Shown piece after piece: positions 1 through 37,068 of a stretch of 64,000 nt of DNA. The DNA lies in IMG/VR virus record IMGVR_UViG_3300036546_000271; one strand, 5' to 3'. The stretch's first letter is position 1; each line of letters begins with the position of its first letter. The position numbers and the translations under genes were made by a program. The notes below the pieces were generated by a model. It ran no database searches, had not been told where the DNA came from, and worked only from the letters and a program-made list of their open reading frames with translations. This DNA is from an uncultured virus (IMG/VR IMGVR_UViG_3300036546_000271). Its lineage: Duplodnaviria; Heunggongvirae; Uroviricota; Caudoviricetes.

Positions 1-241
1 AAGACTTGACACAAACTATAAGACAAAAGCTAATACCTGCAAATATACAGCAACCATCAAGTATAATTCAGATGATAAATCAAGTTTTAAATGCTATTAA
101 TATACCAAAACCAAAAGACTTGACACAAACTATAAGACAAAAGCTAATACCTGCAAATATACAGCAACCATCAAGTATAATTCAGATGATAAATCAAGTT
201 TTAAATGCTATTAATATACCAAAACCAAAAGACTTGACACA
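1..241 (+). repeat. 114-bp tandem repeat (38 aa), two perfect copies (1-114, 115-228) plus a partial third
   Basis: Identical units beginning AAGACTTGACACA at 1, 115 and 229. Confidence 0.95.
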
Positions 242-536
242 GATTGTGAAGCAAAAACTTATTCCAGCTGACTTTTCTCAAATCAGAGAGAATAATAACA
301 TGTCGGTGCCTTTGCCATCGTCAATCAAGCAAAATAGTCAAGATAATAAAGTCGAACAAGTGTCTCAAGATAAGAACATAAACATAAACATCAACGGAAA
401 TGGAAGTATAAAAATCAACCCGGAAGCCTCTAAAGAGGCAATGCTTAATATACTGCTTGAAAATGTCAAGCCAGTACTAATGAATATCTTGCAAGAAGAA
501 ATATTCGAGGAGGGAGAGTTGAGCTATGATTTCTAA
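6..536 (+). CDS. C-terminal end of probable tape measure protein (truncated by window edge)
   Basis: Directly upstream of the LysM/XkdP-like gene, same position as the tape measure gene at 46488-49580. Confidence 0.7.
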   Translation: MTQTIRQKLIPANIQQPSSIIQMINQVLNAINIPKPKDLTQTIRQKLIPANIQQPSSIIQMINQVLNAINIPKPKDLTQIVKQKLIPADFSQIRENNNMSVPLPSSIKQNSQDNKVEQVSQDKNINININGNGSIKINPEASKEAMLNILLENVKPVLMNILQEEIFEEGELSYDF

Positions 537-1188
537 ATACCAATACTGGTTTACATTTGATAACGAAAAAGAAAGACTAAGGCTCCCTGTCCTTCCTGAA
601 GAATTCTCTGTAAGCATTGGATCTAAGAATGAAAGTGTAGATGTTGCTGGTCTAGGCGAAACAACTATAAAACAAGACAGGCCAGCAATTACATTTTCTT
701 TTAGCTCCATATTTCCTGCTAGTGAATTTCCAGGAGTGGAATACGAAGATTTTCCACCACCAAGCACATGTATTGAGACTCTTATTAGGTGGAAAGAATC
801 TGAATATCCTATTCACTTTATAGTAACTGGAACTAAAATAAATATATTTGTAACTATCGAGAGTCTTGAATACAAGGAAATAGGTGGAGATGTCGGCACT
901 CTTCACTACTCAATAACCCTTAAAGAATTTAGACCTATTCAAGTCAACCAAATCAAAGTAAATACTAGCACCGGCACTGCCATAGTAAGGAATGAAACCA
1001 AAAGAACTGATAATAGGGTTCAATCAAAATTATATACAGTAGCTCCTGGAGACTATCTTTTCAAGATAGCAAAGAAAACTCTATCTGACCCTAGCAAATG
1101 GAAAGAAATAGCCTCTATAAATGGGCTAAAAGCTCCATACACTATCTATCCTAATCAAAAATTAAAACTACCAACAGATATAGGGTGA
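526..1188 (+). CDS. XkdP-like LysM-domain tail protein
   Basis: C-terminal LysM (YTVAPGDYLFKIAK...IYPNQKLKLP); position. Confidence 0.85.
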   Translation: MISKYQYWFTFDNEKERLRLPVLPEEFSVSIGSKNESVDVAGLGETTIKQDRPAITFSFSSIFPASEFPGVEYEDFPPPSTCIETLIRWKESEYPIHFIVTGTKINIFVTIESLEYKEIGGDVGTLHYSITLKEFRPIQVNQIKVNTSTGTAIVRNETKRTDNRVQSKLYTVAPGDYLFKIAKKTLSDPSKWKEIASINGLKAPYTIYPNQKLKLPTDIG

Positions 1189-1194
1189 TAATCT

Positions 1195-2163
1195 ATGATG
1201 GAATTTATACTTATTAAAAACAACAAGCCTTTAGATATCACTAATTTAGTTGAAAGTGTGACTTGGAGTGGTAGAAAGGGAGCTGCTGGAAGAATATTAA
1301 CAGCGACACTTATTAGCTCAAAAAACTATGGACATGACAGTATAAAAATAAATATTGAAGAAGGAATTTACTGTATTTTTAGATGGCAAAAGAAAGAACT
1401 ATTTAGAGGCATAGTTCTTAAGCAAGGAGCCAATAAAAGCAAAAAGGAACAGATAGTAGCAAGAGATAACTTAATATATTTTGCCAACAACACAGATACA
1501 TTCAACTACAAGAATATGTCTGCTAGTGAGATCTTCATCGATTGCTGTAATAGATTTAAAATAGCTTATGACAAAGTTGATGATACAGTTTATAAAATAC
1601 CTAATCTACCAAAAAGAGACGCTTCATTGTGGGATGTAATTCTCGATGCACTAAGCCAGACATATAAGGCCAATGGAGAAAGGTATTATTTAAAATCTGA
1701 ACTAGGGAAAATCAGTCTGTTTAAGAGAAAAAACTCATTGAAACAGTGGGTAATTAAAACTGGTAGCAATTTACTTGATTATGACTATTCAAAAAGCATT
1801 GAAGATATTAAGACTAGGATTAAATTAGTGAGCGATAATGGTACTGTTTTAGCCGAAGAAATTAACTCCGATCTTGAAGGTAAAATAGGTATATTTCAAA
1901 AAACTATCAAGCCTGATGACAAGCTCAATCAAGGACAACTTCAACAGATTATTAAAACTATACTAAAAGAAATAAGCACTACAAAACAAGACTTAAACCT
2001 AACTTGTATTGGAATACCAGATGCAATAAGTGGTATTGCTGTATATATATCAATACCCGAGCTAGGAATTAGAAGAAGTTTTTACGTTGATGAAGATAGT
2101 CACACTTTTAAGGGAAGATATCACGAAATGAAGTTAACCCTAAATTACACCAACGAATTGTAG
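1195..2163 (+). CDS. XkdQ/YqbQ-like baseplate hub protein
   Basis: 322 aa, follows the LysM gene; counterpart of 50250-51209. Confidence 0.75.
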   Translation: MMEFILIKNNKPLDITNLVESVTWSGRKGAAGRILTATLISSKNYGHDSIKINIEEGIYCIFRWQKKELFRGIVLKQGANKSKKEQIVARDNLIYFANNTDTFNYKNMSASEIFIDCCNRFKIAYDKVDDTVYKIPNLPKRDASLWDVILDALSQTYKANGERYYLKSELGKISLFKRKNSLKQWVIKTGSNLLDYDYSKSIEDIKTRIKLVSDNGTVLAEEINSDLEGKIGIFQKTIKPDDKLNQGQLQQIIKTILKEISTTKQDLNLTCIGIPDAISGIAVYISIPELGIRRSFYVDEDSHTFKGRYHEMKLTLNYTNEL

Positions 2164-2171
2164 GTGATGAT

Positions 2172-2600
2172 ATGAAAGCTACAAGCATTAAAGAAATAAT
2201 TCAAAGCATGCAAATAAAAGATATGGAGATATTAGAAGGTGTTGTAATATCAGAAGCTCCTTTGAATATAAAGCTTGCGAACAATGAAAAAATGGTTCTA
2301 GATGAAGATATCTTGATAGTTCCACAACACCTTACGGATTATAAAACTAAATTATCTTTTGCAGCTATAGCTGGAGCAGTACTTAGTTCAAAAACAAAAC
2401 CTGCCGGAAGTCATAATCACACTGTATCAGGAGTTGGAAGCACAAGTACTGTTGAGGACCATGAGCACGAACTTAATGATTTGCAATTAACTCAAGTTGA
2501 AGTAACTGTTCATAATGCACTAAAGAAGGATGAGAAAGTACTGCTACTGAGTTATAACAATAGCAAGATGTATTACGTTTTAGATAGGGTGGTGAAATAA
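2172..2600 (+). CDS. XkdR/DUF2577-like baseplate spike protein
   Basis: GVVISEAPLNI N-terminus, LKKDEKVLL...YYVLDRV C-terminus, His-rich insert. Confidence 0.7.
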   Translation: MKATSIKEIIQSMQIKDMEILEGVVISEAPLNIKLANNEKMVLDEDILIVPQHLTDYKTKLSFAAIAGAVLSSKTKPAGSHNHTVSGVGSTSTVEDHEHELNDLQLTQVEVTVHNALKKDEKVLLLSYNNSKMYYVLDRVVK

Positions 2601-2602
2601 CC

Positions 2603-3007
2603 ATGCCTTTAGATATACCTATAAACATAACTGAAATTGACAATGATTCAGAGGCAATACCTACAAAAACATATAAAATAGACTTTGAAAATGGTAGGAT
2701 CATCGGTAAAGTAGATGAGATAGAAGCAATAAAACAGTTTATTAAAAAAGCACTTAAAACTCCAAGGTTTAAGTGCTTAATTTATGATGGCCAATATGGA
2801 AGTGAAATCGATAATTTGATTAAGTCAGATTCTACTTTCCAGTTTATCGAAAGCGAGCTTCCAAGGGTGGTTGAAGATGCACTTATATACGACAAAAGAA
2901 TTCAAAAAGTATATGACTTCTCATTTGAACTGTCAAAAGAACAGTTATATATAAAATTTAAAGTTGACACAATATATGGCACTACTGAATATGAGGAGGT
3001 GATATAG
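2603..3007 (+). CDS. XkdS/DUF2634-like baseplate wedge protein
   Basis: KTYKIDFENG, EAIKQFIKKALKTPR, YGSE motifs; precedes baseplate J. Confidence 0.8.
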   Translation: MPLDIPINITEIDNDSEAIPTKTYKIDFENGRIIGKVDEIEAIKQFIKKALKTPRFKCLIYDGQYGSEIDNLIKSDSTFQFIESELPRVVEDALIYDKRIQKVYDFSFELSKEQLYIKFKVDTIYGTTEYEEVI

Positions 3008-3008
3008 A

Positions 3009-4070
3009 TTGTTCGAAGATAGAACCTATGAAAATATACTTCAAGAGTTTCTTGATATGGCACCTCCTGATATAGATACAAGACAAGGTAGTGTATATTA
3101 TGATGCTGTAGCTCCTGCAGCTTTTAAACTTGCTAAATTTTATGCTGATTTGCAAATGACCTTCGAGCTTGTATTTATAGATAGTACAGAAGGGGAATTC
3201 TTAACAGAAAAGGCAAAAGAGCATGGAGTTGAAAGACTGCCGGCAAAACCAGCTAAAAGACGGGTAACTTTTGAAGGAGTTATTCCAAACACCGGAGAGA
3301 GATTCTTTGCAGAGCAGCAATATTTTGTACTTAAAAACGATGATGAAATAGGACTATATGTAGAAGCTGAAGAACCAGGAGAAAGTGCTAACAATATTCC
3401 TATAGGTACAAAGTTAGTTCCTTTAAATAATATATTTGGACTTACCTCTTCTACTTTAGGAGAAGTAATAGAACCAGGAACAGAAGAAGAAAGTGACGAT
3501 GATTTAAAAAGAAGATTAAGAGAAAAAATAGCAGGTCCAGCTGAAAACGGAAACAAACAACACTATAAAACATGGTGCGAGGAAGTTGTTGGAGTCGGAA
3601 GGGCTAGAATATTTCCTCTTTGGGATGGGCCTAACACTGTCAAAGGTGTTCTGGTAGATACGCAAGGTTTGCCGGCTTCACAAACTGTAGTTGATTCAGT
3701 TCAGGAGTATGTTGATCCAGGAGCACAAGGCTTAGGAGAAGGAGTTGCTAATCTAGGTGCAAAATTTACAGCAGTAGCTGCAAATACATATAACATAGAT
3801 ATTTATTTTCAAGCTGTAGCAAAACAAGGAGCAACTCTCGATGATGTAAAAAATGAAGCTATTGAAGCTTTTACTGAATACTTCAAAGACATTACATTAA
3901 ATACTCCTGAAGGTGAAGACATGATTATAAGAGTATCGGCAATTGGAAATATAATCTATGAACTAGCTTCAGTGTTAGACTATAGCAATTTAACGATTAA
4001 TGGTGGCACTGCGAACATTCAAATAGATATTGAATCAGTTCCGGTGCTGGGGGTGGTGACTGTTGAATAA
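3009..4070 (+). CDS. Baseplate J-like (XkdT) protein
   Basis: GTEEESDDDLKRR and GNKQHYKTWCEEVVGV motifs. Confidence 0.9.
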   Translation: MFEDRTYENILQEFLDMAPPDIDTRQGSVYYDAVAPAAFKLAKFYADLQMTFELVFIDSTEGEFLTEKAKEHGVERLPAKPAKRRVTFEGVIPNTGERFFAEQQYFVLKNDDEIGLYVEAEEPGESANNIPIGTKLVPLNNIFGLTSSTLGEVIEPGTEEESDDDLKRRLREKIAGPAENGNKQHYKTWCEEVVGVGRARIFPLWDGPNTVKGVLVDTQGLPASQTVVDSVQEYVDPGAQGLGEGVANLGAKFTAVAANTYNIDIYFQAVAKQGATLDDVKNEAIEAFTEYFKDITLNTPEGEDMIIRVSAIGNIIYELASVLDYSNLTINGGTANIQIDIESVPVLGVVTVE

Positions 4071-4917
4071 CTATGATGAGATAAAAACATTTCTTCCTGA
4101 CTTTTATAATGACATTTTAGAAATGCAGTTGTATCTTCAGGCTCTTGGAGGCCAACTCGATAAAGCTGAAGAATCAAATATAAAAGTGCTTTTTAATAAT
4201 TTCATATATAGAGCTGATGAAGATGCAATCGAAAGACTAGAAAAATATTTGTATCTACCAATTGACAGAGAAAAGCCTCTAGAAGATAGAAGGCGTTTAG
4301 TAACTTCTTTCTTTGTTGGTTTCGGTAAAATGAGTGCTTCTAAAATAAAAGAAATTGTATATCAGTTTACAAATGCAATTCCAGATGTAAAGTTTGAAGA
4401 TAGCACCATATTTGTTGAAATTGAAAGAGGAGATACACAGTCTCTGTATTTAATCGATGTGGCCACTATCTTATCAAGAAGACTCCCGGCTCATCTTGAA
4501 TTTACTTTAAGTGTTAATATCACAGTGAATACAACTGTAGAAGTAAAATCTCATATTTATCCATTCAATTATAAACTTTGTGATGAGTTGATATGTGGTA
4601 CTTATCCAAGACCAGCATATTTAGGAGAAGTTGATAGAAATATAGTAAATGTATCAGCCAAGGAAGAAATCAATATATTTGATTACAGACTGTGTGGAAC
4701 TTACCCAATTAATACAACTATTGGTGATGTAGACATAGTATTGACGGAAATAAATGCCGACAGTAAAAACTACCCCTTTGACTATAAATTAGCCGGCACA
4801 AACCCAGATATAAGTACTTTGGGAGATATAAACAATATACAAGCAAGCACAGATGAAGCAACTAAAACAGTTGCTTTTTCTTATACCCTTTGTGGAACCA
4901 AAAGATGTGGTGAGTAA
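4063..4917 (+). CDS. XkdU/DUF2313-like tail protein with C-terminal Cys repeats
   Basis: Follows baseplate J; LEDRRR and LPAHL motifs; repeated F.Y.LCGT.P. Confidence 0.7.
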   Translation: MNNYDEIKTFLPDFYNDILEMQLYLQALGGQLDKAEESNIKVLFNNFIYRADEDAIERLEKYLYLPIDREKPLEDRRRLVTSFFVGFGKMSASKIKEIVYQFTNAIPDVKFEDSTIFVEIERGDTQSLYLIDVATILSRRLPAHLEFTLSVNITVNTTVEVKSHIYPFNYKLCDELICGTYPRPAYLGEVDRNIVNVSAKEEINIFDYRLCGTYPINTTIGDVDIVLTEINADSKNYPFDYKLAGTNPDISTLGDINNIQASTDEATKTVAFSYTLCGTKRCGE

Positions 4918-4930
4918 GGAGGTGAAGTAA

Positions 4931-5239
4931 TTGGCTAACTTTTGGAATGAAAGCTTTCTTCAGAAAATGCGTGACAAATGGCTAAAGTCAATTGCTTATG
5001 CTGAATATGTCATGAATGATGTAACCTATAGAGCTGACATACAGCAGAAAAAAATAGTAGGAGACACTATTGAAGTATATGTTGTCATTGATCATTCAGT
5101 TCAGGGAACAAATACTATCACAAAAATAAGACTGTATGACACAGATGGAACAATAGCAGGTGAAAGAACAGAAAATATTGTGAAAAGCAGCACTCAAGGT
5201 GTGCTGATTAAATTTGAATTCCCTTTGAAGGAGGTGTAG
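4931..5239 (+). CDS. Phage tail-associated protein
   Basis: Strong RBS; homologous to 53993-54292. Confidence 0.6.
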   Translation: MANFWNESFLQKMRDKWLKSIAYAEYVMNDVTYRADIQQKKIVGDTIEVYVVIDHSVQGTNTITKIRLYDTDGTIAGERTENIVKSSTQGVLIKFEFPLKEV

Positions 5240-5245
5240 CAATAA

Positions 5246-5692
5246 ATGAAACCATATAACAGAACAGTTTGGAAAGATCATGTTACAGACCCTGAAACAG
5301 GGCAGGTCATACAGGAAGGTACTCCAGAAAGTGCTACTAACTTCAACAATATAGAAACTGGTATATTTGCTAATGATTCATCTAGTTCAGTATTAATGCA
5401 GGAGGTAATGCAGCATAAAAGATTATTAGCTGACCTAGAGGGAGAAATGGGAGAAGTAACACTAACAAACAGTCAAGAGTATCCATTTAATAATTCAGAG
5501 CAAACTGTTTCCTTATCAAAGGCCAGAGATACTCTGAATTATAGGGTGGATGTTGAAATCGTGAGTGCTGTAGGCTTTCCTGGAAAAATTGAAGTATATG
5601 ACAAGCAGTTAAATGGTTTTAAAATCAAATTTACTGGCAGTGCATCTTCTGTCACTGTCAAATACATTGTTCAAGGAGGTATGTATCAATGA
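5246..5692 (+). CDS. Phage tail fibre-associated protein
   Basis: Homologous to 54293-54730 (PFNNS, DKQLNGFKI, VQGGMYQ). Confidence 0.65.
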   Translation: MKPYNRTVWKDHVTDPETGQVIQEGTPESATNFNNIETGIFANDSSSSVLMQEVMQHKRLLADLEGEMGEVTLTNSQEYPFNNSEQTVSLSKARDTLNYRVDVEIVSAVGFPGKIEVYDKQLNGFKIKFTGSASSVTVKYIVQGGMYQ

Positions 5693-6012
5693 TAGTCGTT
5701 GAAAAAAATGAAGGTACTAAAATTAATTATTCAGTTGAAGATACTAAATTAACATTAAGAGATGAGATGACTCTAGATTTAGAAAAATATGAAAGGGATT
5801 TTCCAGTGCATATTGATATATGCAAAAACAAGTTTGGAATGCTAACCTTTGAACTTAGCGAAAAGTATGTAGCTCAAATAGATATACCAGCTAGAGAATA
5901 TAATGAAGTTCAAAACGGAACTGATGAAGAAGGAAATCCGAAGATAGATAAAGTTCCGGTACCTTTCGATATGAATAAAGTAACACTAACATTATGGAGT
6001 TTGGAGGGATAA
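5689..6012 (+). CDS. Phage tail-associated protein upstream of the DGR target
   Basis: Homologous to 54895-55224 (EKN.G.KI.Y, IDIC.N, LTLW). Confidence 0.65.
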   Translation: MIVVEKNEGTKINYSVEDTKLTLRDEMTLDLEKYERDFPVHIDICKNKFGMLTFELSEKYVAQIDIPAREYNEVQNGTDEEGNPKIDKVPVPFDMNKVTLTLWSLEG

Positions 6013-6015
6013 TAA

Positions 6016-7071
6016 ATGACTAACTTTGATGATTTAAAACTATCAGTAGAAGCACTTTCGGGAGGAAAAAACACAGTATTATTTGATGATTTAGGCATGC
6101 CGAGCATTATGGTACCTATACCAAAGTTTAAGCTATCTGATGTAATAGATGGAGCTCCTCAAGAGACACATCCAGCATTCATTATCGATGGAGAAGAAAA
6201 AGATGTAATTTACATTTCTAAATATCAAAACATCGTAATGAATGACAGGGCATATTCACTACCTTATAAAGACCCTAAGGTTTATACAACTTTTGATCAA
6301 GCTGTTACTTATTGTAGGAACAAAGGACCAGGTTGGCATCTGATGACCAATGCAGAATGGGCAGCACTGGCTCTATGGTGTAAGAAAAACGGATTTATGC
6401 CAAGAGGAAATAACAGCTACGGCAAAGACCACAGTGCTACACACGAAAAAGGAGTACCAACGTATATCTATGACACCGATACAATCGCTAGAGTGGCCAC
6501 TGGTTCAGGGCCAGCTTCATGGGCTCACGATGGCACCAACGAAGGCATATTCGACCTAAACGGAAACGTATGGGAGTGGGTAGCTGGATTTAGACTTGCA
6601 GATGGAGAAATACAGGTGATTCCATACAATGAGGCTGCGAAAGATGATGCAAGCATGGCTTCTGACAGCACTCTATGGAAAGCTATCTTGCAAGATGGTT
6701 CTTTAGTTGCTCCTGGTACTGCAGATACTCTAAAAATTGATGGAGAAACTGCAACACCAAGTGGAATCAGAATCAATACAAGTGTAGTTAATCAAACAAC
6801 AGATGAAAATTATCTAAGCAAAACATTAGAAACCATAACAGCAGCTGACGGAGTAACTATACCAATGCTTTTAAAAGCTCTAGGTATTGCTCCTGTAGAC
6901 GCTAATCATGGAGGAGATAATGTGTGGGCTAGAAATAAAGGAGAAAGATTGCCGTTCCGTGGTGGCTACTGGATCGGCGGTTCCGATGCCGGGGTGTTTT
7001 CTCTGCACCTCAGCTACCCTCGTTCGGGCTCCAGTAGCAACATCGGCTTCCGTGCTGCTTACATTGGATAA
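6016..7071 (+). CDS. DGR target protein 1, Mtd-like with C-terminal C-type lectin/FGE-like variable domain (probable receptor-binding protein)
   Basis: WHLMTNAEW, DLNGNVWEW, RGG.W...GFR motifs; 3' end contains the VR. Confidence 0.92.
   Translation: MTNFDDLKLSVEALSGGKNTVLFDDLGMPSIMVPIPKFKLSDVIDGAPQETHPAFIIDGEEKDVIYISKYQNIVMNDRAYSLPYKDPKVYTTFDQAVTYCRNKGPGWHLMTNAEWAALALWCKKNGFMPRGNNSYGKDHSATHEKGVPTYIYDTDTIARVATGSGPASWAHDGTNEGIFDLNGNVWEWVAGFRLADGEIQVIPYNEAAKDDASMASDSTLWKAILQDGSLVAPGTADTLKIDGETATPSGIRINTSVVNQTTDENYLSKTLETITAADGVTIPMLLKALGIAPVDANHGGDNVWARNKGERLPFRGGYWIGGSDAGVFSLHLSYPRSGSSSNIGFRAAYIG
6949..7059 (+). repeat. DGR1 variable repeat (VR1), 111 bp
   Basis: Matches 7544-7654 apart from 11 substitutions, all opposite TR adenines. 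Confidence 0.97.
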
Positions 7072-7101
7072 TCTGTAATCTGAAAAACTGATAATCTGAA
7101 T

Positions 7102-7121
7102 AGGCTGACGATAGTCAGCCT
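7102..7121 (+). promoter_or_regulatory. DGR1 hairpin downstream of VR (AGGCTGAC-GATA-GTCAGCCT)
   Basis: Perfect 8-bp stem with a 4-nt loop; equivalent hairpin in DGR2. Confidence 0.85.
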
Positions 7122-7166
7122 TTAATATTTTTATGTAGTTAAATTTACAGCAAAAGAGGGTGCAAG

Positions 7167-7508
7167 ATGGCAACAGAAGAACTGAAAATATTGCAGAAAA
7201 CCTATGATATGATTCTTTATGCTAACATATGCCTGAAACAATTTCCAAAACATGAAAAACACGTACTTGCAGCAGACATTAGAAAATCTATGTATAAATT
7301 ACTTTCACTTATTATTGCAGCAAATAAAAAATACTATAAGAAAACAACTCTTCAAGAGATAGACATAGAACTTGATGTGTTAAGAACTTACATCCGATTA
7401 TCTATGGATCTAAAATACTTACCTATAAAGAAGTATGAGATATGGAGCAAAAAGCTCAATGAAATAGGTAAAATGCTAGGTGGCTGGATGAAATACGCTA
7501 AAAAATAA
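7167..7508 (+). CDS. avd: DGR accessory variability determinant
   Basis: 113-aa basic protein with FPKHEK and EIGKMLGGW motifs, between target and TR. Confidence 0.92.
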   Translation: MATEELKILQKTYDMILYANICLKQFPKHEKHVLAADIRKSMYKLLSLIIAANKKYYKKTTLQEIDIELDVLRTYIRLSMDLKYLPIKKYEIWSKKLNEIGKMLGGWMKYAKK

Positions 7509-7543
7509 TTTTGAATATATTACACAGGGAATGAGCCGTGTAA

Positions 7544-7654
7544 TTGCCGTTCCGTGGTGGCAACTGGAACAACGGTTCCAATGCCGGGGTGTTTTCTCTG
7601 AACCTCAACAACCCTCGTTCGAACTCCAGTAACAACATCGGCTTCCGTGCTGCT
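7544..7654 (+). ncRNA. DGR1 template repeat (TR1)
   Basis: AAC-rich copy of VR1 between avd and RT; 22 adenines. Confidence 0.95.
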
Positions 7655-7818
7655 CTACTCTCATTGTCAGAAGTTATAAGCTTAAGGGCTTATATCCAGT
7701 ACAGAGAGTGTAAAGGGGTTCATTTCCTTGCCTTATAGGCAAAAAACTTTATTACCATGGAAGCAGCTAGTAGCTTTTTAGTGAAGGATGCTACACATGG
7801 TATATTACTTAAGTAAAG

Positions 7819-8910
7819 GTGGCAGATATGAAAAGAATAAAGAATATCTATCCTGAAATATATGACTTTGAAAATCTTTATAAATCATATCTAGAAGCTA
7901 GAAAATCAAAAAGATTTAGAAGTGATGTATTAGAATTTGCTGCTAATCTAGAAGAAAATTTAATTGAGATACAAAATGAGCTTATATGGAAAACCTATGA
8001 GGTTGGAAGATATAGAGAGTTCTATGTATATGAACCGAAAAAACGGCTTATTATGGCTCTGCCTTTCAAAGATAGGATAGTTCAGTGGGCAGTATACAGA
8101 AAAATATTCCCTATATTCGATAAGCAGTTTATAAATGATTCATATGCTTGCAGAAAAGGCAAAGGAACACATAAAGCTGCAGATAGGCTCCAATATTGGC
8201 TTAAAAAAGTATCAAGAAAACCTCAAAAATGGCACTATCTTAAGCTAGATATATCAAAGTATTTTTATAGGATAGACCACAGTGTATTAATGGATATCCT
8301 CGAAAGAAAAATAGCTGACAAAGACCTACTTTGGCTACTAGATAAAATCATAAATAGTGAAGACATGAAATTTGGACTACCTTTGGGAGCAGATCCTGAT
8401 GAAGTATCTGATGATGATAGACTTTCTGATGTAGGTATTCCTATAGGAAATCTGACATCACAGATGTTTGCAAATCTCTATCTGAATGAGCTGGACCAGT
8501 ATTGTAAACATAAGTTAAGACTTAAATACTATATCCGGTACATGGATGATGTCATAATACTCCACTCTGACAAGAAATATTTACACGATGCAAAAGCAGA
8601 GATAGAGAGATTTTTAAATGAAAATCTTAAACTTCATCTAAATAATAAGACTGCTATTAGGCCAATAAATACCGGCATTGAATTCGTTGGCTTTAGGATA
8701 TGGCCAACCCATAGAAAGCTCAAAAAGAAAACAGCTCTTAAGATGAAAAAGAGAATTAAATATATCAAGAAAGCTTATGAAAGGGGTGATATAGACTTTG
8801 AAAAAGTAAATGGAACTATGCAGAGCTACTTTGGGATTATGAAACATTTTAATAGTTATAAGCTTAAAAACAAACTGCTAAGTGAGTTTGTTTTGATAAG
8901 AAAGCCATAA
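7819..8910 (+). CDS. DGR reverse transcriptase 1 (start may be ATG at 7828)
   Basis: LKLDISKYF, GIPIGNLTSQ and YIRYMDD motifs; no maturase/endonuclease extension. Confidence 0.95.
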   Translation: MADMKRIKNIYPEIYDFENLYKSYLEARKSKRFRSDVLEFAANLEENLIEIQNELIWKTYEVGRYREFYVYEPKKRLIMALPFKDRIVQWAVYRKIFPIFDKQFINDSYACRKGKGTHKAADRLQYWLKKVSRKPQKWHYLKLDISKYFYRIDHSVLMDILERKIADKDLLWLLDKIINSEDMKFGLPLGADPDEVSDDDRLSDVGIPIGNLTSQMFANLYLNELDQYCKHKLRLKYYIRYMDDVIILHSDKKYLHDAKAEIERFLNENLKLHLNNKTAIRPINTGIEFVGFRIWPTHRKLKKKTALKMKKRIKYIKKAYERGDIDFEKVNGTMQSYFGIMKHFNSYKLKNKLLSEFVLIRKP

Positions 8911-8923
8911 ACTACATGTATAT

Positions 8924-9466
8924 TTGACAGAAAGAAGGTGTATCATGGAACAATTTACACAATATATTGATAGAGCTGTAAGTGGAACTAAACCACTTTG
9001 GGGAACGGCAATAGCGACACTGTGTTATATAATGTTTCCTGAAAAAGCTTATCAGACAGCTGCGTTAGCAGTTGGAGGAGCTATATTACTAGATATCTTC
9101 ACTAAATACATTGCACTTTCATACCAAAGTCGTGGATTAAGAAATGCTATAAAACAACGAAAAATATTCAGCAAAACTTTGTGGGAAGGCACTAGAATCA
9201 AGCTAGTGTCTTATTTAGTTATAGCAATTCTTGCTGGACTTAGTTATAGAGTTACGATGCTTACACAAGTAAGTGTATTTTTGGCTACAGTGGTTTACTC
9301 AGTTATATTTCTTAGAGAAGCTCAGTCTATAATTGAAAATCTTATTGATGCAGGGGCAGATCTAAAGTGGCTCCTAATTTGGACAAAAAGAAAGCAAGAA
9401 CAGATACTAGAGAACGATATTAAAGAAAATGTATCGAATGGAAGTGATAATGTTGAAAAAATTTGA
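8924..9466 (+). CDS. Phage holin-family membrane protein
   Basis: Several hydrophobic segments, REAQSIIENL motif, upstream of endolysin. Confidence 0.7.
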   Translation: MTERRCIMEQFTQYIDRAVSGTKPLWGTAIATLCYIMFPEKAYQTAALAVGGAILLDIFTKYIALSYQSRGLRNAIKQRKIFSKTLWEGTRIKLVSYLVIAILAGLSYRVTMLTQVSVFLATVVYSVIFLREAQSIIENLIDAGADLKWLLIWTKRKQEQILENDIKENVSNGSDNVEKI

Positions 9467-10127
9467 GATTATTTCAGTTGATGATTTAATTAAAAGATTA
9501 GAGAATTACACATACAACCAATTGCACATTCATCACACATGGAAACCAGATCATTCTAATTTCAATGGCAACAATCATATCCAACTACAACAAGGTATGT
9601 ATAATTATCATACAAAACAACTAGGCTGGAGAGATATAGGCCAACATGTAACATTAATGCCAGATGGTACATTTGTCACAGGTAGAGATTTCTCGCAAAC
9701 ACCTGCAAGTATAAGAGGATGGAATGTAGGAGCTTTTGCAGTTGAAATGCTTGGGAATTTTGACAAGGATAGAGACAAGCTTAGAGGAAAACAGAAGGAA
9801 AGCATACTCAGACTATCAAAGTATTTTGGAGAGAGGTTTGGATACAACAGTATAAAGTTCCACAGAGAAGGTCCTGGAGTATTTAAAACGTGTCCAGGCT
9901 CATCAATAAATAAAGATGATTTTATAAAGGAGGTTAAATCAGTGGGTAAAGTTTTTACAGACGTAGATGATAATAGGTGGTCAGCTAGTTATATTGAAAA
10001 AGCGTACAAATTAGGGTTAATCAAAGGTAATGGAGATGGAACATTTAATCCAGAAGGACCATTGACCAGGGAGCAGGCAGCTGTATTAATGGTAAGGTTG
10101 TATGAATTAATTAAGGAGGGTGAATAA
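9429..10127 (+). CDS. Endolysin, amidase_2-type catalytic domain plus C-terminal SLH domain
   Basis: HIHHT, GWRDIGQH, KTCPG; FTDV...GLIKG.GDGTFNP...TREQAA SLH motif. Confidence 0.88.
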   Translation: MYRMEVIMLKKFEIISVDDLIKRLENYTYNQLHIHHTWKPDHSNFNGNNHIQLQQGMYNYHTKQLGWRDIGQHVTLMPDGTFVTGRDFSQTPASIRGWNVGAFAVEMLGNFDKDRDKLRGKQKESILRLSKYFGERFGYNSIKFHREGPGVFKTCPGSSINKDDFIKEVKSVGKVFTDVDDNRWSASYIEKAYKLGLIKGNGDGTFNPEGPLTREQAAVLMVRLYELIKEGE

Positions 10128-10447
10128 TGAATAGTGAAGCTATTATCCAAATAGGAACAATAATTATTGCTCTTATCGGAGCTGCAATAACTTATGTTGT
10201 AGTACCTTATGTGAAGAGTAAAACAACTTCAGAACAGTACAAAATGATTGAGTTTTGGGTTCGTGTAGCAGTTCAAGCTGCAGAACAATTATTCAATCAA
10301 CCAGGAATGGGCGAGCAGAAGAAACAATATGTGCTTAATTTCCTATCAGATAAAGGAATTAAGATGACAATGAAGCAGTTAGATGCATTAATCGAAGCAG
10401 CTGTCCAGGAGCTAAACAAAGGAAAGCTTCTTTCTAGTTCGAATTAA
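10127..10447 (+). CDS. LL-H-type phage holin
   Basis: N-terminal TM segment, AVQAAEQ, G.QKK, IEAAV motifs; homologous to 59412-59750. Confidence 0.8.
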   Translation: MNSEAIIQIGTIIIALIGAAITYVVVPYVKSKTTSEQYKMIEFWVRVAVQAAEQLFNQPGMGEQKKQYVLNFLSDKGIKMTMKQLDALIEAAVQELNKGKLLSSSN

Positions 10448-10451
10448 TCGG

Positions 10452-10489
10452 AAGACTAGGGCCAAATACAAAGGTCCTAGTCTTTTTTT
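10452..10489. terminator. Intrinsic terminator between the lysis module and the convergent HTH gene
   Basis: AAGACTAGGGCC...GGTCCTAGTCTT stem followed by a T run. Confidence 0.75.
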
Positions 10490-10683
10490 ATTTCCACCAA
10501 TTCTCCTATATCGCATCCAAAATACTCTGCAAACTTTTCTAATGTTCTAAGAGTTACATATTCATTTTTATTTATTTTAGCAATAACATCGTTAGATACC
10601 CCTATTTCTTTTCTAATATCCTGCCATTTTAAACCTCTCTCAATAACTTTTTCTCTCAATCTCTTATATGTTATCATTTGCAA
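10477..10683 (-). CDS. Cro/C1-type HTH regulator
   Basis: ITYKRL...VTLRTLEKFAEYFGCDIGELVE. Confidence 0.8.
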   Translation of the reverse strand: MQMITYKRLREKVIERGLKWQDIRKEIGVSNDVIAKINKNEYVTLRTLEKFAEYFGCDIGELVEIKKD

Positions 10684-10800
10684 CCCCCCTTATTACTACA
10701 TTTTATTTTATTACATAGATGTGGGCTTGTCTATATTTCTCGGTGTTTATGAAAAAATATAGATAAAATCGGAATACCGGACAAGTAATACTGCATAAAA

Positions 10801-10860
10801 TTAAACAAAGTTAAAAAAGTTTAAACACATAACTTAAACAAATTTAAAAATGTTTAAAAG
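10801..10860 (+). repeat. parC-like direct repeats: six TTAAA(C/A)A units in two groups of three with 10-bp period
   Basis: Units at 10801, 10811, 10821, 10834, 10844 and 10854, just upstream of the parM-like fragment. Confidence 0.5.
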
Positions 10861-10870
10861 GGGTGGTGAA

Positions 10871-11071
10871 ATGCTACTAGGTATCGACAAAGGTACTACC
10901 TACACAAAGACAGATAAAAAACTTTGTATTAGAAGCACAATAAGAAAATATAAAGATAATGATATTATGCTTAATGATGAAAAGATACTATTTGAAATGG
11001 GTGGACAGAAGTGGATAGTAGGAGAAAAAGGGAATTACTCAACTAGGAGAAGCTCCAATACCAAAAACTAA
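10871..11071 (+). pseudogene. N-terminal fragment of a ParM/StbA-family actin-like ATPase
   Basis: MLLGIDKGTTYTK phosphate-1 motif and WIVGE; truncated after ~57 aa. Confidence 0.65.
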
Positions 11072-11075
11072 TAAG

Positions 11076-12242
11076 ATGGGTAGAGTTTACTGGCCAAATA
11101 ATAAAAATATACTTGCACTGCCTAAGATAATTATTGGCCCTATGGGAGCCGGGAAAGATGAGTACACTATCAATTTTAGTGTAAATGCAGCTAAAAAAGG
11201 TGATGGATTAATCATATTTGACTATATTAAAAACTGTGAAATGACCAATAGAATAGCAAAACACGTTAATAACCCTATAGTAATTGATTTATCTAAAAAA
11301 GAAAACATATGTGCATTAGCATATCCGGAGGTTGAAATACCAGATGATGATTGGGGCAAATTAGAAGTTGCCAATATGATGTCGAGGCAAGTAGAATACT
11401 TAATAAATTCTCTTTCTGAAGAACCACTGTCACCAAGGATGTGTAGATACCTCGATGCAGCTTCAAAAGTTGTTTTTATACACGAAGATGCTAAAGTTAT
11501 GCATGTAATTGAAGTTCTGACTAATTGGAAGACAAGAAACGAATATATAAGAAAAGCTAAGTATTCAGGAATATTCAAAGAAAATGATATAGAACTCGTT
11601 GATTTGGATAGCCTACATGATAGAGATAGCTCAGGAAAGATAGTAGGTACTAGGGAATCAAGAATTGAAGGTATAATGGATAGAATTAATATATTGATGA
11701 AAGATATATATCTTAGAGCTATGGCTAATGCCGAGATAAATCATGATCATAATTTTAAAAAGTGGATGGATGAAGGAAGAACTGTTTTGATACAACTTCC
11801 TGAAAGCAAGTTCACAAATAAACAAGTTAAAGATACTATTGTTACCTACTTTATGTCTAGAGTTTGGTTTGCTACTTTGCAAAGGAAAAATCATGATAGA
11901 GTATGTCACGTCATTACTAATGAGACTCACCAGGTTCCAACTGCAGCTAAACTGATAAGCAATATTATCACAGAACCTCGCAAATTCGGTGTAGATTTCT
12001 ATTTTACTATCCACTACTTGAAGCAGTTCAAATTATTACACGATGCAATCAGGAGTGCTGGAGCTTCATATATGCTTTTAGCCGGAACTGAAAAAGAAAA
12101 CCTAAAAGAATTGGAGGAAGAACTAAAGCCTTTCACTATAAGTGAAGGTTTGAACCTAAAGCCATTCCACAGCCTTAATATTGTAAACTATGGAAATCAG
12201 TATGCTAAATTTGTAAGTAAATTACCTAAACCTATAGCTTAA
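11076..12242 (+). pseudogene. C-terminal part of a VirB4/TraG/HerA-like P-loop ATPase (5' end apparently deleted)
   Basis: GPMGAGKD Walker A, FDY, VITNETHQ (degenerate Walker B), PRKFG; frame runs upstream to ~11040 without an RBS. Confidence 0.6.
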
Positions 12243-12244
12243 TA

Positions 12245-12274
12245 TTGAATATATTTATATTATACTGATATAAT
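12245..12274 (+). promoter_or_regulatory. sigma-A-like promoter for miaB fragment 1 (TTGAAT, extended -10 TGATATAAT)
   Basis: Same TGATATAAT motif precedes the second miaB fragment. Confidence 0.55.
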
Positions 12275-12329
12275 AAGTTATGATATTATACAAACAATAA
12301 ACAAAAATAAAATAGATGGAGGAGCAACT

Positions 12330-12485
12330 ATGAGCAAAAGAAAGATAGTTTCAGTCTCACAAGAAGAACTTGAAAGACAAAAACAAATCATGAATGAACT
12401 GAGAAATAAAAATGAAGAATATTATAAACTTACTGGTAGGAGAAAAACCTTTTTTACTCAAACATACGGTTGTCCAGTGGTTTGA
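12330..12485 (+). pseudogene. miaB: 5' fragment of tRNA methylthiotransferase MiaB (MSKRK...TQTYGC, then PVV*)
   Basis: GGAGGAG RBS; homologous to 59832 fragment; ends at the TxGC(QMN) motif. Confidence 0.8.
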
Positions 12486-12490
12486 GTAAA
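12453..12490. other. att junction 1: TTTACTCAAAC-N16-GTTTGAGTAAA centred on TG 12471-12472
   Basis: Perfect 11-bp inverted repeat; CGGTTGTC core shared with junction 2; next to recombinase 3' end. Confidence 0.8.
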
Positions 12491-12552
12491 CATGATTTTT
12501 GATACATGTTGATTTAACTAGGTTTGTGGATAAACTCAAAATCAAAAATACA

Positions 12553-12577
12553 AAAGAAAAAGCCCTTTTTAAAGGGC
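12553..12577 (-). terminator. Probable terminator of integrase 2
   Basis: Minus strand GCCCTT...AAGGGC stem followed by TTTTTCTTTT. Confidence 0.6.
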
Positions 12578-14299
12578 CTATATATCTCTATATACAAATT
12601 TGTGCGTAAGACCATTTTTAAAGCATATAGCAGATACTTTACCATCATCCACTACAACCTTATCAACAACTGTATTCATAAAATCCTTAACTAGCTCCTT
12701 ATCTATAGTCATAACAATCTTTTTGTAGTTGATTGATTTTTTATTTATAAGCTCATTACTAATCATGAAATGACTAGCTTTCTGAAGAAAAGATATATCA
12801 TTATAAGCTACTTGATTGCTATTCTCCTCATGCAATTCTTGGAGCTTATTATTTATATCATCTATTTTACTTTTTAGCTTATGCTTTTGAAGCAGGAAAT
12901 CTTTCTCGGACATAGATTCTTCCGAGAATAAATATAGGTTTTGAAGTCTATCAATTGCTCTTTCATACTTTTCCTTTTCCTTTTTTAATATTTCCATTTC
13001 GGAAATATTTTCTTTTTTTGTCTTAGCTTCATCCTTCGGCACATCAAGAAGCACATTATCTAAATTAGAATAAAGAATTGAAATATAAATGCTTTCAAGT
13101 CCCTTAGTTTCAATTCCAGCTACTTTCTTAAATATTTTTCCGGATAAAAGTATCTTTTCCAGGTCTTTAAGGTTATGCTTTTTAGTCAGTTTTTGCTGTG
13201 CTTTAAGAAGGTTTGCAAGATAATTCATTACAAATGGTCCAAGTGTTACTTCGCTTATCATCTTTGCATCACAGCCCAGAGCTCTAGATTTGCCCTGACA
13301 ACGGTATATTGATGGTCTATATCCATCTTTACGTGGTTGATCCAGGCAAGCATTAAAACCACGGCCACATTTTTTACACTGAATAAGACCACTGAATACA
13401 TGGGTGTGAGTGTTTTTTCTAAGTAGAGCAGTATTCCTTGATGCATTAAAGTCCATTATTTTGTTACAGCTTTCCCATTGCTCCTTGGATATAATAGCCT
13501 CATGGTTATCATCTACAATTATCCATTCTGATTTATCTTTCTTTCTACCCCTAGCACTTTCTCTATAGTTGTATCTGTATGTACCTTTATAAAAAGGATT
13601 TCTTATGATATCTACCACAGTTTTACTTGTCCAGGTTCCACCACGTTTTGTTTTGATACTATTAGAATTGAGTATTTTCATGACCTGAAAGGCTGAACGG
13701 TGCTCTTCGTACTTATCATATATAAATCGAACCACCTTAGCTTCTTCTTCATCCGGAACAGGGAACTTCTTTTCATCATCCCATTTATAACCTAAAGGAC
13801 ATTGTGCTCCATTCCAGAGGCCTTTCTCTGCTCTTGAGAGCATAATAGAAGATACCCTTTCAGCTGTAAGTTTTCTTTCAAGCTCTGCAAATACCAAGAT
13901 TATTTTTAGCATAGCTTCTCCCATAGCTGTAGATGTATCGAATTGTTCATTTTTAGATATAAAAGTCACATTGTATTTTTTTAACTCCTCATACATCTCA
14001 GTAAAATCTTTAAGATTACGAGAGATTCTATCGATTTTCCATACCAGTAGGTGAGTGAACTCTCCATTTCTAATCCTTGTCATCATATCTTGGAAAGCAG
14101 GCCTGTCCATATTTTTCCCAGAATAGCCGGCATCTTCAAAAATTTCATAGTCATCGATACCCAAAAGATACTTTGAATAGTTAATAAGCTCCTTCCTTTG
14201 GAAGGGGAGAGAATCCCTGTCTAATTGATGATGTGTGCTAACTCTTATGTACAATGCTGCTTTTTTAATAAAAATCACCTTCCTTTTAAAAGAGTACAA
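12578..14299 (-). CDS. Large serine recombinase (integrase) of element 2; true start probably near 14269
   Basis: AALYIRVST catalytic Ser, DAGYSG, DRISRN, zinc ribbon CKKCG...YRC, coiled coil. Confidence 0.95.
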   Translation of the reverse strand: MYSFKRKVIFIKKAALYIRVSTHHQLDRDSLPFQRKELINYSKYLLGIDDYEIFEDAGYSGKNMDRPAFQDMMTRIRNGEFTHLLVWKIDRISRNLKDFTEMYEELKKYNVTFISKNEQFDTSTAMGEAMLKIILVFAELERKLTAERVSSIMLSRAEKGLWNGAQCPLGYKWDDEKKFPVPDEEEAKVVRFIYDKYEEHRSAFQVMKILNSNSIKTKRGGTWTSKTVVDIIRNPFYKGTYRYNYRESARGRKKDKSEWIIVDDNHEAIISKEQWESCNKIMDFNASRNTALLRKNTHTHVFSGLIQCKKCGRGFNACLDQPRKDGYRPSIYRCQGKSRALGCDAKMISEVTLGPFVMNYLANLLKAQQKLTKKHNLKDLEKILLSGKIFKKVAGIETKGLESIYISILYSNLDNVLLDVPKDEAKTKKENISEMEILKKEKEKYERAIDRLQNLYLFSEESMSEKDFLLQKHKLKSKIDDINNKLQELHEENSNQVAYNDISFLQKASHFMISNELINKKSINYKKIVMTIDKELVKDFMNTVVDKVVVDDGKVSAICFKNGLTHKFVYRDI

Positions 14300-23792: not shown

Positions 23793-24077
23793 ATGAACGA
23801 AAATCAGATATTATCACTGGCTATAAGACTATTTGGCCAACAAAAACAAAGAATCGTGGCCATAGAAGAAATGAGTGAACTTCAGAAAGCTTTGTGTAAA
23901 TTTGAAAGAAAACAAACTAATGAAAATATAAACTCTATAGCCGAGGAAATTGCAGACGTTGAGATAATGATTAAACAGCTTAAAATCATGTTTGGCATAG
24001 ATGATCAGGTGGAAGAAATCAAGGATTATAAAATTAAAAGACTCGAAAATAGAGTAAAGGGGGCTATCAAACTATGA
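23793..24077 (+). CDS. MazG-like nucleotide pyrophosphohydrolase
   Basis: EEMSELQKALCK...EEIADVEIM. Confidence 0.75.
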   Translation: MNENQILSLAIRLFGQQKQRIVAIEEMSELQKALCKFERKQTNENINSIAEEIADVEIMIKQLKIMFGIDDQVEEIKDYKIKRLENRVKGAIKL

Positions 24078-24721
24078 AAAAGCTTATCGTGATGGATAAA
24101 AATACTGGCGATACACTTGAAGATATTGAATTTTCAGGTGGGTATAATATTTTCTACACCAATACAACCGATGCTGGCAATATCAGAAAGATAAGAAAAC
24201 TAGACAATGGAAGGTTTGGAGACAGGCACTGGATAAAGAATTTATATTATAGACCTATAGCTGAAAAGTTAGTAGAGAAGTTTGAAGAACTAAAACATGT
24301 ACCAGTCAAGAAAATACTATTTATCGAAGATATGGAGTGGGAGAAACCCGATTCATTAAAACCTAAAAAACACTGGATGGCTAGGATAAAAAAAGCCACT
24401 AAAGAGCTTAATGCTATGACCGGATATGAATACATACTTGAAACCAGGAATTATTTTTTAGAGCAAATGAGTAGAGAGCAAGTTGTGGCACTTATATATC
24501 ATGAATTAAGACATATAGACCATTGGGGAGATTTAGTTCCTCACAATATAGAAGATTGGAGTAATATGGTGGCCACTCTTGGAACTGATTGGGCGACTAC
24601 TAAAGCACCAATTAAAGATATACTTGATGACGATTTTATTGCATGGAGAGAGCTCGATAAAGCGTCGAAACAACTCACGATTTATGATATGTCATCATCA
24701 GGATTAAAGGTTGTGAAATAG
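24074..24721 (+). CDS. Putative phage metallopeptidase
   Basis: LIYHELRHI HExxH motif followed by HNIED. Confidence 0.65.
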   Translation: MKKLIVMDKNTGDTLEDIEFSGGYNIFYTNTTDAGNIRKIRKLDNGRFGDRHWIKNLYYRPIAEKLVEKFEELKHVPVKKILFIEDMEWEKPDSLKPKKHWMARIKKATKELNAMTGYEYILETRNYFLEQMSREQVVALIYHELRHIDHWGDLVPHNIEDWSNMVATLGTDWATTKAPIKDILDDDFIAWRELDKASKQLTIYDMSSSGLKVVK

Positions 24722-24756
24722 ATTTTAATCTAAATAAAAGCAAAGGAGGATCATTA

Positions 24757-24987
24757 ATGAAAAACACACTTGGGGATTTAAACAATCATTTATTCGCTCA
24801 ACTAGAGAGACTGAGCGATGAAGACATAAAAGGCGACGACTTGAAGGAAGAAATTGAAAGAGCAAAAGCAGTTACACAAATCGCTACAAAGATAATAGAA
24901 AACGGAAGTTTAGTATTGCAGGCAAAGAGATTGCATGACAACCGAATGGATGCTGATCTAAAACTACCTAAGATGTTGGAGGGTTAA
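24757..24987 (+). CDS. Conserved phage protein preceding HNH endonuclease
   Basis: DLNNHLFAQLERL...EEIERAKA; strong RBS. Confidence 0.65.
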   Translation: MKNTLGDLNNHLFAQLERLSDEDIKGDDLKEEIERAKAVTQIATKIIENGSLVLQAKRLHDNRMDADLKLPKMLEG

Positions 24988-24989
24988 AA

Positions 24990-25586: not shown

Positions 25587-25689
25587 GGAGGATTTGATAT
25601 GAAAATAAAGACAGTGGTAGAGAGAGCTGCCGAGTTTCTTAAAGAGAACCCAAGTCTTAAATACTACCAAGCAATCGAAAAGGCTAGGA

Positions 25690-26100: not shown

Positions 26101-26565
26101 GGAGGGGGGCAGATGGACAAGTATTGGAAAAATGCATCTGGATGTTACGATCCAACACTGGCTTCGGTAATAGAAAAAGAAAACTCTGCTGAAAAAGCTA
26201 ACAATAAAGCTAGAAACAAACAGGTGCACGATACAATCCAGGAGATAAAAAACATATTAAAAGAAAGAGATTTAGAACTAATAGAACGGATAAAGTTGAA
26301 AGATAAAAGGACTAATAAAAAATACAAGTAGGAGGCTAACTATGGATTTATTTAAAAAACTTCAACTCGAAATGGCCATAAAAGAACAAAGAAATATGTT
26401 GCCAGAGTTTTTGCAGCTATGCCAGGTAACAGCAGCTCAGATGAAAATGTACTATGATTCATTGAGAAACGTAGGATTTACAGAGGAGCAGGCGATGGAT
26501 TTGTTATCGTTTCATGGAATAGATGTTGGAAGAATATCTTATATGGACAAGGGAGGCCAGACAGA

Positions 26566-29492: not shown

Positions 29493-29502
29493 GAGGGGTC
29501 AT

Positions 29503-37046: not shown

Positions 37047-37068
37047 CTAAAGGAGGTGAAAACAAATA

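Follow-up and report, generated by a model that had tools for sequence, protein, structure and literature searches.

An inverted repeat joining a phage-borne miaB 5' end to a serine integrase gene is very probably an intact phage attachment site

We studied a 64,000-nucleotide stretch of DNA from an uncultured member of the Caudoviricetes (IMG/VR record IMGVR_UViG_3300036546_000271; the whole stretch is called the window here) that carries two surrogates for the 5' end of the bacterial gene miaB, each followed by the gene of a large serine recombinase on the opposite strand (Table 1). The boundary between the first surrogate and its integrase side, J1, is numbered from an axis between T12471 (-1) and G12472 (+1), and the equivalent boundary at the second surrogate, J2, from an axis at 59973|59974. 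We refer to the two recombinases as Int(B) and Int(C), to the corresponding phages and integrase clades as beta and gamma, and to attachment sites by their usual names: attP in the phage, attB in the bacterium, and attL and attR at the left and right ends of a prophage. A preliminary description of the window had drawn attention to the symmetry of J1 and had treated the 47.5 kb between the two junctions as an excisable 'element 2'.

The first surrogate belongs to an open reading frame (ORF) of 51 codons (12330..12485) that, in the unrecombined site, continues past Cys48 to a stop at 12485 and yields a product ending in ...FFTQTYGC-PVV. T45, G47 and C48 are invariant among the surrogate and the miaB N-terminal segments of 8 related loci, and phage holin and lysis genes lie upstream of both miaB fragments according to Pfam. 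Int(B) and Int(C) scored 126.9 and 130.8 bits against PF00239 (Resolvase), 99.2 and 89.4 bits against PF07508 (Recombinase), and 33.6 and 34.0 bits against PF13408 (Zn_ribbon_recom), always above the curated cut-offs, and the combination of Resolvase, Recombinase and zinc-ribbon domains marks Int(B) as a large serine integrase. Near their N-termini the integrases carry the motif YIRVST, whose serine we take to be the catalytic residue. Among the related genomes and proviruses (G numbers), the beta clade comprises Int(B) and the integrases of G001 (91% identical to Int(B)) and G102 (79-80%), and the gamma clade comprises those of G003 (82% identical to Int(C)), G002 (77%), G007 (66-67%), G194 (82%) and G292 (82%).

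A position search confirmed the perfect 11-bp inverted repeat that had been described at J1 as centred on the TG of a Cys codon. The 11-mer TTTACTCAAAC occupies 12453-12463 on the plus strand, its exact reverse complement GTTTGAGTAAA occupies 12480-12490 beyond a 16-bp spacer, and the axis falls between the first two bases (T-G) of Cys codon 48 (TGT) in the surrogate ORF. This 11-mer has no other exact copy in the window; when up to one mismatch is allowed there are three matches, two of which are the J1 arms themselves. The core of the site reads TACGGTTG, not TTCGGYTG, a sequence that occurs at J2 (59967-59974). Symmetry at J1 reaches beyond the 11 bp, to 20 of 30 positions overall and, for the outer stretch -30..-9, 18 of 22. 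An attP formed by excising 'element 2', made of the arm of the 59832 fragment and the J1 right arm, had been expected to be less symmetric, and this expectation was borne out: ACTCTAAC stands at the place of the J1 arm's ACTCAAAC (7/8), and the dyad comprises only 14 of 30 positions (12/22 in the outer part) as against 20 of 30 at J1. With the Int(B) stop codon 106 bp to its right, J1 consists of imperfect inverted half-sites around a non-palindromic TG beside an integrase gene.

An 11-bp perfect inverted repeat is in itself not rare. The window holds four loci with a perfect inverted repeat of at least 11 bp and a spacer of 2-20 bp, compared with a mean of 0.77 in 100 first-order Markov sequences, 43 of which had at least one. 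The case for J1 rests on position and conservation. Two coincidences go beyond chance: the J1 axis matches the crossover point set independently by related attL/attR pairs, and 41 consecutive bases of J1 equal the attP that can be rebuilt for the relative G102.

These relatives were found by running a profile of the miaB 5' fragment on 112 species genomes from one family, that of the nearest genomic relatives, and 106 of them gave a match. Since a second strong copy of the fragment adjoining a related integrase marks a lysogen, at least 7 of the 112 genomes are lysogenic (G006, G007, G008, G009, G059, G065 and G102); a third profile row in G006 came from an overlapping contig of the same locus. 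When the search was widened to 401 genomes of the order, two more came to light, G194 and G292, each with a single prophage in a complete chromosome. In G102, which also holds a single prophage, host genes (AsnA, YetF and others) lie to the left of the prophage, attL consists of the host arm (KKHLTVTYGC) and, to its right, an arm that hardly differs from window 12472-12501, and attR consists of the phage's own arm, with the same ending as the left arm in the window, followed by the miaB body. When the left arm of attR and the right arm of attL were joined to rebuild the G102 attP, J1 matched it at 54 of 60 positions, including an identical run of 41 nt from -20 to +21, and matched G102 attL at only 49 of 60. 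The hypothetical attP from excision of 'element 2' behaved in the opposite manner, with 51 of 60 positions matching G102 attL versus 47 of 60 matching G102 attP.

The preliminary description had proposed asking whether the arms beside homologous integrases covary with the phage's own miaB fragment or with the one upstream. We carried out this check and found, to the left of each integrase in the window, an arm that single prophages of the integrase's own clade carry themselves (1/1 for beta and 3/3 for gamma, among prophages with both ends recovered). All three gamma prophages with both ends (G007, G194 and G292) have a phage-own attR arm of the KKHLT type, with CATCTCACT at -22..-14, while their host arms differ (KKVMIVTYGC, KKYIIITYGC and RKYIVLTYGC, respectively). 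The KKHLT arms found in hosts are not scars left by gamma phages, an origin that we ruled out because 8/8 species of the group carry the arm with synonymous variation. In the outer 22 positions, dyad scores were 18 for J1 and, among rebuilt attPs, 16 for G102, 14 for G007, 18 for the Clostridium tetani prophage phiCT19406C, 14 for G194 and 12 for G292; the attLs scored 13 (G102), 9 (G007), 13 (phiCT19406C), 8 (G194) and 8 (G292). Symmetry in this same register does not serve as a general test for an attP, as it fails in G009, G008, G059 and G065. In sites of the G009 type the core shared with attB reaches +10, and the dyad seems to be centred 2-3 bp rightward.

Several boundaries narrow down the crossover. 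The cores common to attL and attR are GGTTGTC in G102 and TGTC in G007, and in the C. difficile strain CD160 a difference between the right arms at +2 limits the crossover to G(+1) or positions to its left. Together with the dyad axis and the contig ends described below, the common cores leave TG as the putative crossover. The premise of a crossover at TG 12471-12472 thus survives, as no pair mapped it elsewhere. The right arms also show the displacement known from characterized sites: according to Rutherford et al. (2013; PMC3783163), the motif bound by the zinc-ribbon domain lies at base pairs 16-24 in attP and 11-19 in attB. In beta right arms, CATGATT occupies +20..+26 in P'(B) versus +15..+21 in the host B' of G102 (which encodes QMNEHDSE), a shift of 5 bp, and in gamma right arms TGAG starts at +16 in P' versus +11 in B'. 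The beta left arms have TTACTNNAAC common to attB and attP in the same register. A general 5-6-bp shift of the left arm was rejected: G007 alone shows one, of 6 bp (TCTCACT at -14..-8 versus -20..-14), whereas G102, phiCT19406C and CD160 do not.

To place J1 in its phage context we compared the window with IMG/VR proviruses and with Logan contigs. Provirus G001 has a normal gene order from integrase to late genes, and its right end is 88% identical in DNA to window 201-6413, versus 69% to the corresponding part of 'element 2'; G001 also matches the Int(B) region and window 16190-23977 at 77-85% (77-80% for 16190-23977). Proviruses G003 and G002, which have integrases of the Int(C) type, are collinear with the window from about 25 to 58.4 kb at 67-81%. 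Contigs of runs X1, X2 and X3 were placed on window 10001-30000; the window comes from a shale-gas metagenome of which X1 may be the source; of the other two runs, X2 is also from shale, and X3 was obtained from soil in a separate metagenome study. A 44,433-bp contig of X3 (record 15) reads 26 unlike letters, window 12471-24720 (as 12471-15553 and 15551-24720), 30,592 other letters after departing from the window, and then 10001-11044. A second X3 contig spans 11044-12474 and ends there. What flanks J1 on either side, at 95-99% identity, thus forms the opposite ends of a single phage in X3, and these ends overlap in TGTC 12471-12474 only. In X1, a contig covering about 8007-16773 runs through J1 with 0 differences and no branch.

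We conclude that the 38-bp J1 repeat is very probably the core of the intact, unrecombined and cognate attP of phage beta, a temperate phage that inserts in miaB. The DNA to the left of J1 is beta's late and lysis end and the DNA to the right is its integrase and early end, so J1 is not a hybrid joint between different prophages; the site has inverted half-sites beside an integrase gene, closely matches the left arm of G102 attR plus the right arm of G102 attL, has flanks from one phage, and carries on its left the beta clade's own arm and not that of the other element. In the mechanism that we infer, a dimer of Int(B) would bind the mirror-image half-sites P and P', cut at TG 12471-12472 and exchange strands with an attB in host miaB, predicted to lie where the conserved G-C-Q-M-N motif has its first Cys codon. 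The left half-site forms part of the phage's replacement of promoter and 48 codons, and the host miaB body would then be fused to, and driven by, the phage copy. Dimer binding, TG cleavage and restoration of miaB are in this sense predictions, the last of which is visible in relatives as an open reading frame. The fragment copies that enter the miaB body lie in open frames of 483-495 aa in G006, G007, G008, G009, G059, G065 and G102, and in the G102 lysogen the phage miaB copy is fused into a 477-aa ORF with UPF0004, Radical_SAM and TRAM domains. The element thus appears to supply a promoter-like site, a start and the first codons, and the miaB ORF would stay open after insertion, as it does in these relatives.

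A second site of the same kind is very probably present at J2, whose symmetry the preliminary description did not mention. It is symmetric about the same TG, with CATCTCA at 59952-59958 and TGAGATG at 59989-59995, and it matches the rebuilt attPs of G194 (48/60), G292 (48/60) and G007 (44/60) better than the attLs of G194 (40/60) and G292 (42/60). J2 is thus very probably the attP of the Int(C) (gamma) clade, of which three single prophages carry the J2 arm as their own. Because its dyad is weak, the case for J2 rests on arm identity and synteny, not on symmetry. Arm ownership and synteny together also resolve 'element 2' as a left part of beta joined to a right part of gamma at 24720/24721, a switch that coincides with the stop codon of a phage metallopeptidase gene (ORF 24074..24721).

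Table 1. Features of the two junctions and of the phage parts around them, in window coordinates.
Feature	Position	Strand	Basis
Right (late/lysis) end of phage beta: tail genes, holins, SLH-domain protein, cargo, miaB surrogate	1..12471	+	
Beta holins	8924..9466 and 10127..10447		Pfam
Promoter-like site before the phage-borne miaB start	12245..12274	+	TTGAAT-18-TATAAT with TG, 10/12 matches; consensus match only
miaB 5' surrogate, 48 codons to Cys48	12330..12473	+	Alignment with miaB N-terminal segments of 8 related loci
Putative P half-site (left arm) of attP; dyad element TTTACTCAAAC	12442..12471	+	Dyad; -20 to -1 identical to G102 attR left arm
Putative central (crossover) dinucleotide TG	12471..12472	.	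Dyad axis; X3 contig-end overlap; common cores
Putative P' half-site (right arm) of attP; dyad element GTTTGAGTAAA; outer motif CATGATT 12491-12497	12472..12501	+	
Left (integrase and early) part of phage beta	12472..24720	+	X3 contig; G001 match
Terminator-like hairpin after the Int(B) gene	12560..12579	-	
Int(B), large serine recombinase, 573 aa	12578..14299	-	Pfam Resolvase, Recombinase, Zn_ribbon_recom
Gamma-type early/late genes, lysis genes, miaB surrogate	24721..59972	+	Synteny with G003, G002; X1/X2 branches
Amidase upstream of the second surrogate	58446..59162		Pfam
Holin upstream of the second surrogate	59412..59750		Pfam
Second miaB 5' surrogate, KKHLT type; left arm with CATCTCA 59952-59958	59832..59975	+	Matches phage-own arms of G007, G194, G292
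Axis of the second attP-like site (TG); right arm TGAGATG 59989-59995	59973..59974	.	Matches rebuilt attPs of G194, G292
Int(C), large serine recombinase, 571 aa	60018..61733	-	60% identical to Int(B)

A number of observations weigh against this interpretation of the two junctions. Only one beta-clade prophage with both ends was recovered (G102), the more distant clades represented by G009, G008, G059 and G065 (at most 53% identity) have a weak dyad at this axis (7-8/23), and the J2 dyad of 13/22 is no better than those of the attLs of G102 and phiCT19406C (13). Contigs drop rare variants, so the branch-free X1 contig leaves room for a minority integrated form, and with regard to the physical state of the DNA, the window contains no host gene, host flank, attB or circular closure. 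The left arm may discriminate poorly between sites, given that TTACTNNAAC is shared by attB and attP and that the CD160 left arms are identical, and the arm from 'element 2' could, with the J1 right arm, still form a working attP. None of these points restores a reading of J1 as a hybrid junction, which predicts a KKHLT arm beside P'(B).

In that reading, J1 would have arisen by serial integration, in which the integrase of a phage B used the attR of a resident phage A, made up of A's miaB arm and the host miaB body, as its attB, so that J1 would have a left arm from A and a right arm from B, and the arms became successive landing pads. It draws on the closeness of the gamma-type arm of the 59832 fragment (59944-59973) to the native host left arms of G102's host genus (22-25/30), eight arms that agree with each other at 25-29 of 30 positions, a closeness by which a gamma attR could plausibly serve the beta integrase as attB, and on the left arms of attB and attP, which are alike in register and in CD160 identical. 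We nevertheless consider serial integration improbable, as the window has the beta clade's own arm where the KKHLT arm is predicted, the J1 flanks belong to a single phage in X3, of which they form either end, and agree with one provirus, G001, 'element 2' pairs Int(B) with a gamma arm and gamma late genes, and host DNA is lacking from the window. A chance palindrome, or a terminator or operator that has nothing to do with recombination, is hardly credible: although the window has four loci with perfect 11-bp inverted repeats, a scan of 12150..12650 called a terminator solely at 12560-12579 and none at the repeat, the axis is the crossover mapped in relatives, and a run of 41 nt is shared with G102 despite an integrase identity of only 79%. 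Of the two alternatives in the preliminary description, the one in which each recoded miaB arm is a new lock for a different integrase finds no support at J1, where the left arm is beta's own. The other, an intact attP-like site within chimeric prophages, holds as to the site and as to the chimeric interval, which the arms, the X3 contigs and synteny all indicate; homologous recombination is a possible cause of the chimera, with an assembly path through shared sequence equally likely.

Given an intact J1 as the attP of beta, the joint at 24.7 kb admits two topologies to which we assign about equal odds, each a little short of even. Both attPs may lie on one real beta-gamma molecule formed by homologous recombination, either as a circular co-integrate or through homology-driven insertion of a beta circle into a gamma prophage or tandem. 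Alternatively, the window may be an assembly path through two co-resident, unintegrated phages (circular or concatemeric genomes) with near-identical shared sequence, in which case each attP would be real and 'element 2' would not be one molecule. An X1 contig (record 6) reads from the beta early region past 24720 to 24816 with 0 differences, such that the joint exists in reads, which favors a single molecule and counts against an assembly path. The X1 graph branches at 24737-24816, where the window's left context and a second one (record 7) both enter a contig covering 24787-30000, as expected of an assembly path through metagenomic data. The window differs from this contig at 24855, 25359, 25370 and 25371; these variants, proper to the original assembly and lying to the right of the joint, suggest a second distinct gamma-type copy and sit poorly with an assembly path, yet 25372-30000 equals the shared contig, and linkage from 24.7 kb to J2 is thus only putative. 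X2 contains a gamma-type contig whose early genes have diverged; it joins at 24737 with a depth of about 13, whereas pieces identical to window 10-24 kb have a depth of about 5, a difference that argues for separate phages, and the X1 depths entering the joint (11.5 and 12.8) do not sum to the depth leaving it (15.2). Depth arithmetic at the branch gave no consistent copy number in X1 or X2. The position of the joint at a gene boundary is typical of phage mosaics and accords with one molecule, but the late regions to the left of J1 and in 'element 2' are only 66-71% identical in the window, where no recombination substrate is seen, and the beta phage of X3 carries on beyond 24720 with 30.6 kb that do not resemble the window. 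Each topology is matched in part by the branch, the depths and the four variant positions at 24.7-25.4 kb. The 80 bp after the joint, with a ribosome-binding site and the start of a 76-aa ORF, are common to the window and the second left context in X1 at about 95%.

The arm comparisons raise one further idea, which we regard as rather unlikely: phages that overwrite the start of miaB may re-key the site for one another, a gamma attR being a ready-made beta attB, since the gamma arm nearly reproduces the native left half of attB in the host genus used by beta-clade phages. If this were true, a gamma lysogen would be closed to a second gamma phage (by the ban on attP x attR) and open to beta, resulting in ordered, integrase-specific stacking. 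A real stack junction would then show a KKHLT arm beside P'(B), and the window is not an example.

The arms borne by these phages resemble those of other hosts. The phage arm of G194 (gamma) differs from the native miaB arm of G099, from another host genus, at 2 of 30 positions, and native arms from C. difficile-type hosts and from G063 match the beta arm (FTQTYGC) at 22-26 of 30. It looks as though the phages had picked up their miaB starts from other hosts. CD160 (loci L001, L038 and L053), with three copies of the miaB fragment, appeared to be a candidate stack of prophages; two of the copies proved to be overlapping contigs of one attL, leaving a single prophage. In this strain the host and phage miaB 5' copies differ at 4 positions in about 250 nt, with 0 differences over the last 80-odd nt before the crossover. 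As the left arms are identical, by sequence attL equals attP and attR equals attB, a situation that is hard to square with product/substrate discrimination by serine integrases through both half-sites. The CD160 arms, together with phage arms that mimic the attB halves of other hosts, bear on how serine integrases tell substrate from product.

Other loci show variations on this arrangement. In G008 and G059 (L003 and L047; Peptacetobacter-type), about 2.2 kb separate the right arm from the integrase gene, and in G008 a long open reading frame occupies the stretch next to the integrase gene. The attL left arm of G059 is identical at 29 of 30 positions to the arm that is phage-borne in G009. Integrases 45-48% identical occur at other targets in L010 and L011, one inside a cyclophilin-like gene (...IFHRVIPDFMIQGG, then phage) and the second directly after another housekeeping ORF, so the integrase family is not confined to miaB. 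In the window itself, the region between holin and surrogate (10477-12242) holds a helix-turn-helix gene (10477..10683, minus strand), a 73-aa ORF and a 388-aa ORF without a Pfam match; gamma has no counterpart of this region, and the X3 phage copy has a different sequence at 11044. A contig of low depth (2.8) in X2 links 18689 back to 12855 with 31 other letters between.

Searches for further copies of the junctions added little. Megablast of both junction regions against phage records gave no match. The miaB arms of IMG/VR proviruses G001-G005 were not found, as all five proviruses are trimmed before the arm, one of them ending in the surrogate promoter. The exact 20-mer of P'(C) had two hits in the metagenome collection, both unrelated chance matches, and degenerate right-arm patterns in IMG/VR returned two loci already known and one unrelated attL. 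No account of serine integrases targeting miaB, of phages that keep miaB open by bringing its 5' end, or of the phiCT19406C miaB site turned up in the literature searches, and a search on tandem prophages with attP found nothing on such arrays.

These results dispose of a misleading clue: a stack of prophages built up by one integration after another is not what the window shows, and no new mechanism is required for the repeat, J1 being an ordinary feature of a temperate phage that targets miaB. What emerges instead is a family of Clostridia phages that insert in miaB and keep the gene open with a 5' end that they bring along, and two related and distinct integrase/attP pairs (integrases 60% identical) with an attB in a conserved motif, from which orthogonal recombinase tools could be developed.

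That serine integrases have symmetric attP sites is textbook knowledge. The dusA-specific integrases, which act on another tRNA-modification gene, are tyrosine recombinases, a family to which the serine recombinases Int(B) and Int(C) do not belong. A close comparison for J1 is the integrase of Listeria phage A118/LI, whose attP (Rutherford et al. 2013, PMC3783163) is likewise a pseudo-palindrome of about 50 bp beside the integrase gene with a 2-bp crossover at the dyad centre and an outer motif that in attP sits 5 bp more distant from the centre than in attB, which in our case applies to the right arm. The Resolvase, Recombinase and zinc-ribbon domains of Int(B) are also those of A118/LI, but Int(B) is only 31.3% identical to the A118 integrase over 71% of its length, the left half-site of J1 lies inside a coding sequence (the miaB 5' replacement), and the left arms lack a clear 5-bp shift. 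A closer relative in target is the C. tetani prophage phiCT19406C (KM983332; integrase 55% identical), which uses the same Cys codon of GCQMN in miaB with the same TG axis, brings a diverged miaB 5' copy, and yields a rebuilt attP with a 15-bp perfect dyad at -30..-16, though its arm sequences differ from those at J1. The KM983332 record (L012, L013) starts in host DNA and marks a 38-bp terminator-like direct repeat as attL/attR; that repeat lies about 140 nt upstream of the integrase-arm junction and is not the crossover. A parallel in strategy is found in the islands and prophages of dusA (Farrugia et al. 2015, PMC4482086), which are reported to depend on a novel integrase family and a different target, dusA and not miaB, and which share with beta and gamma the habit of inserting at the 5' end of a tRNA-modification gene and replacing it with the element's own sequence.

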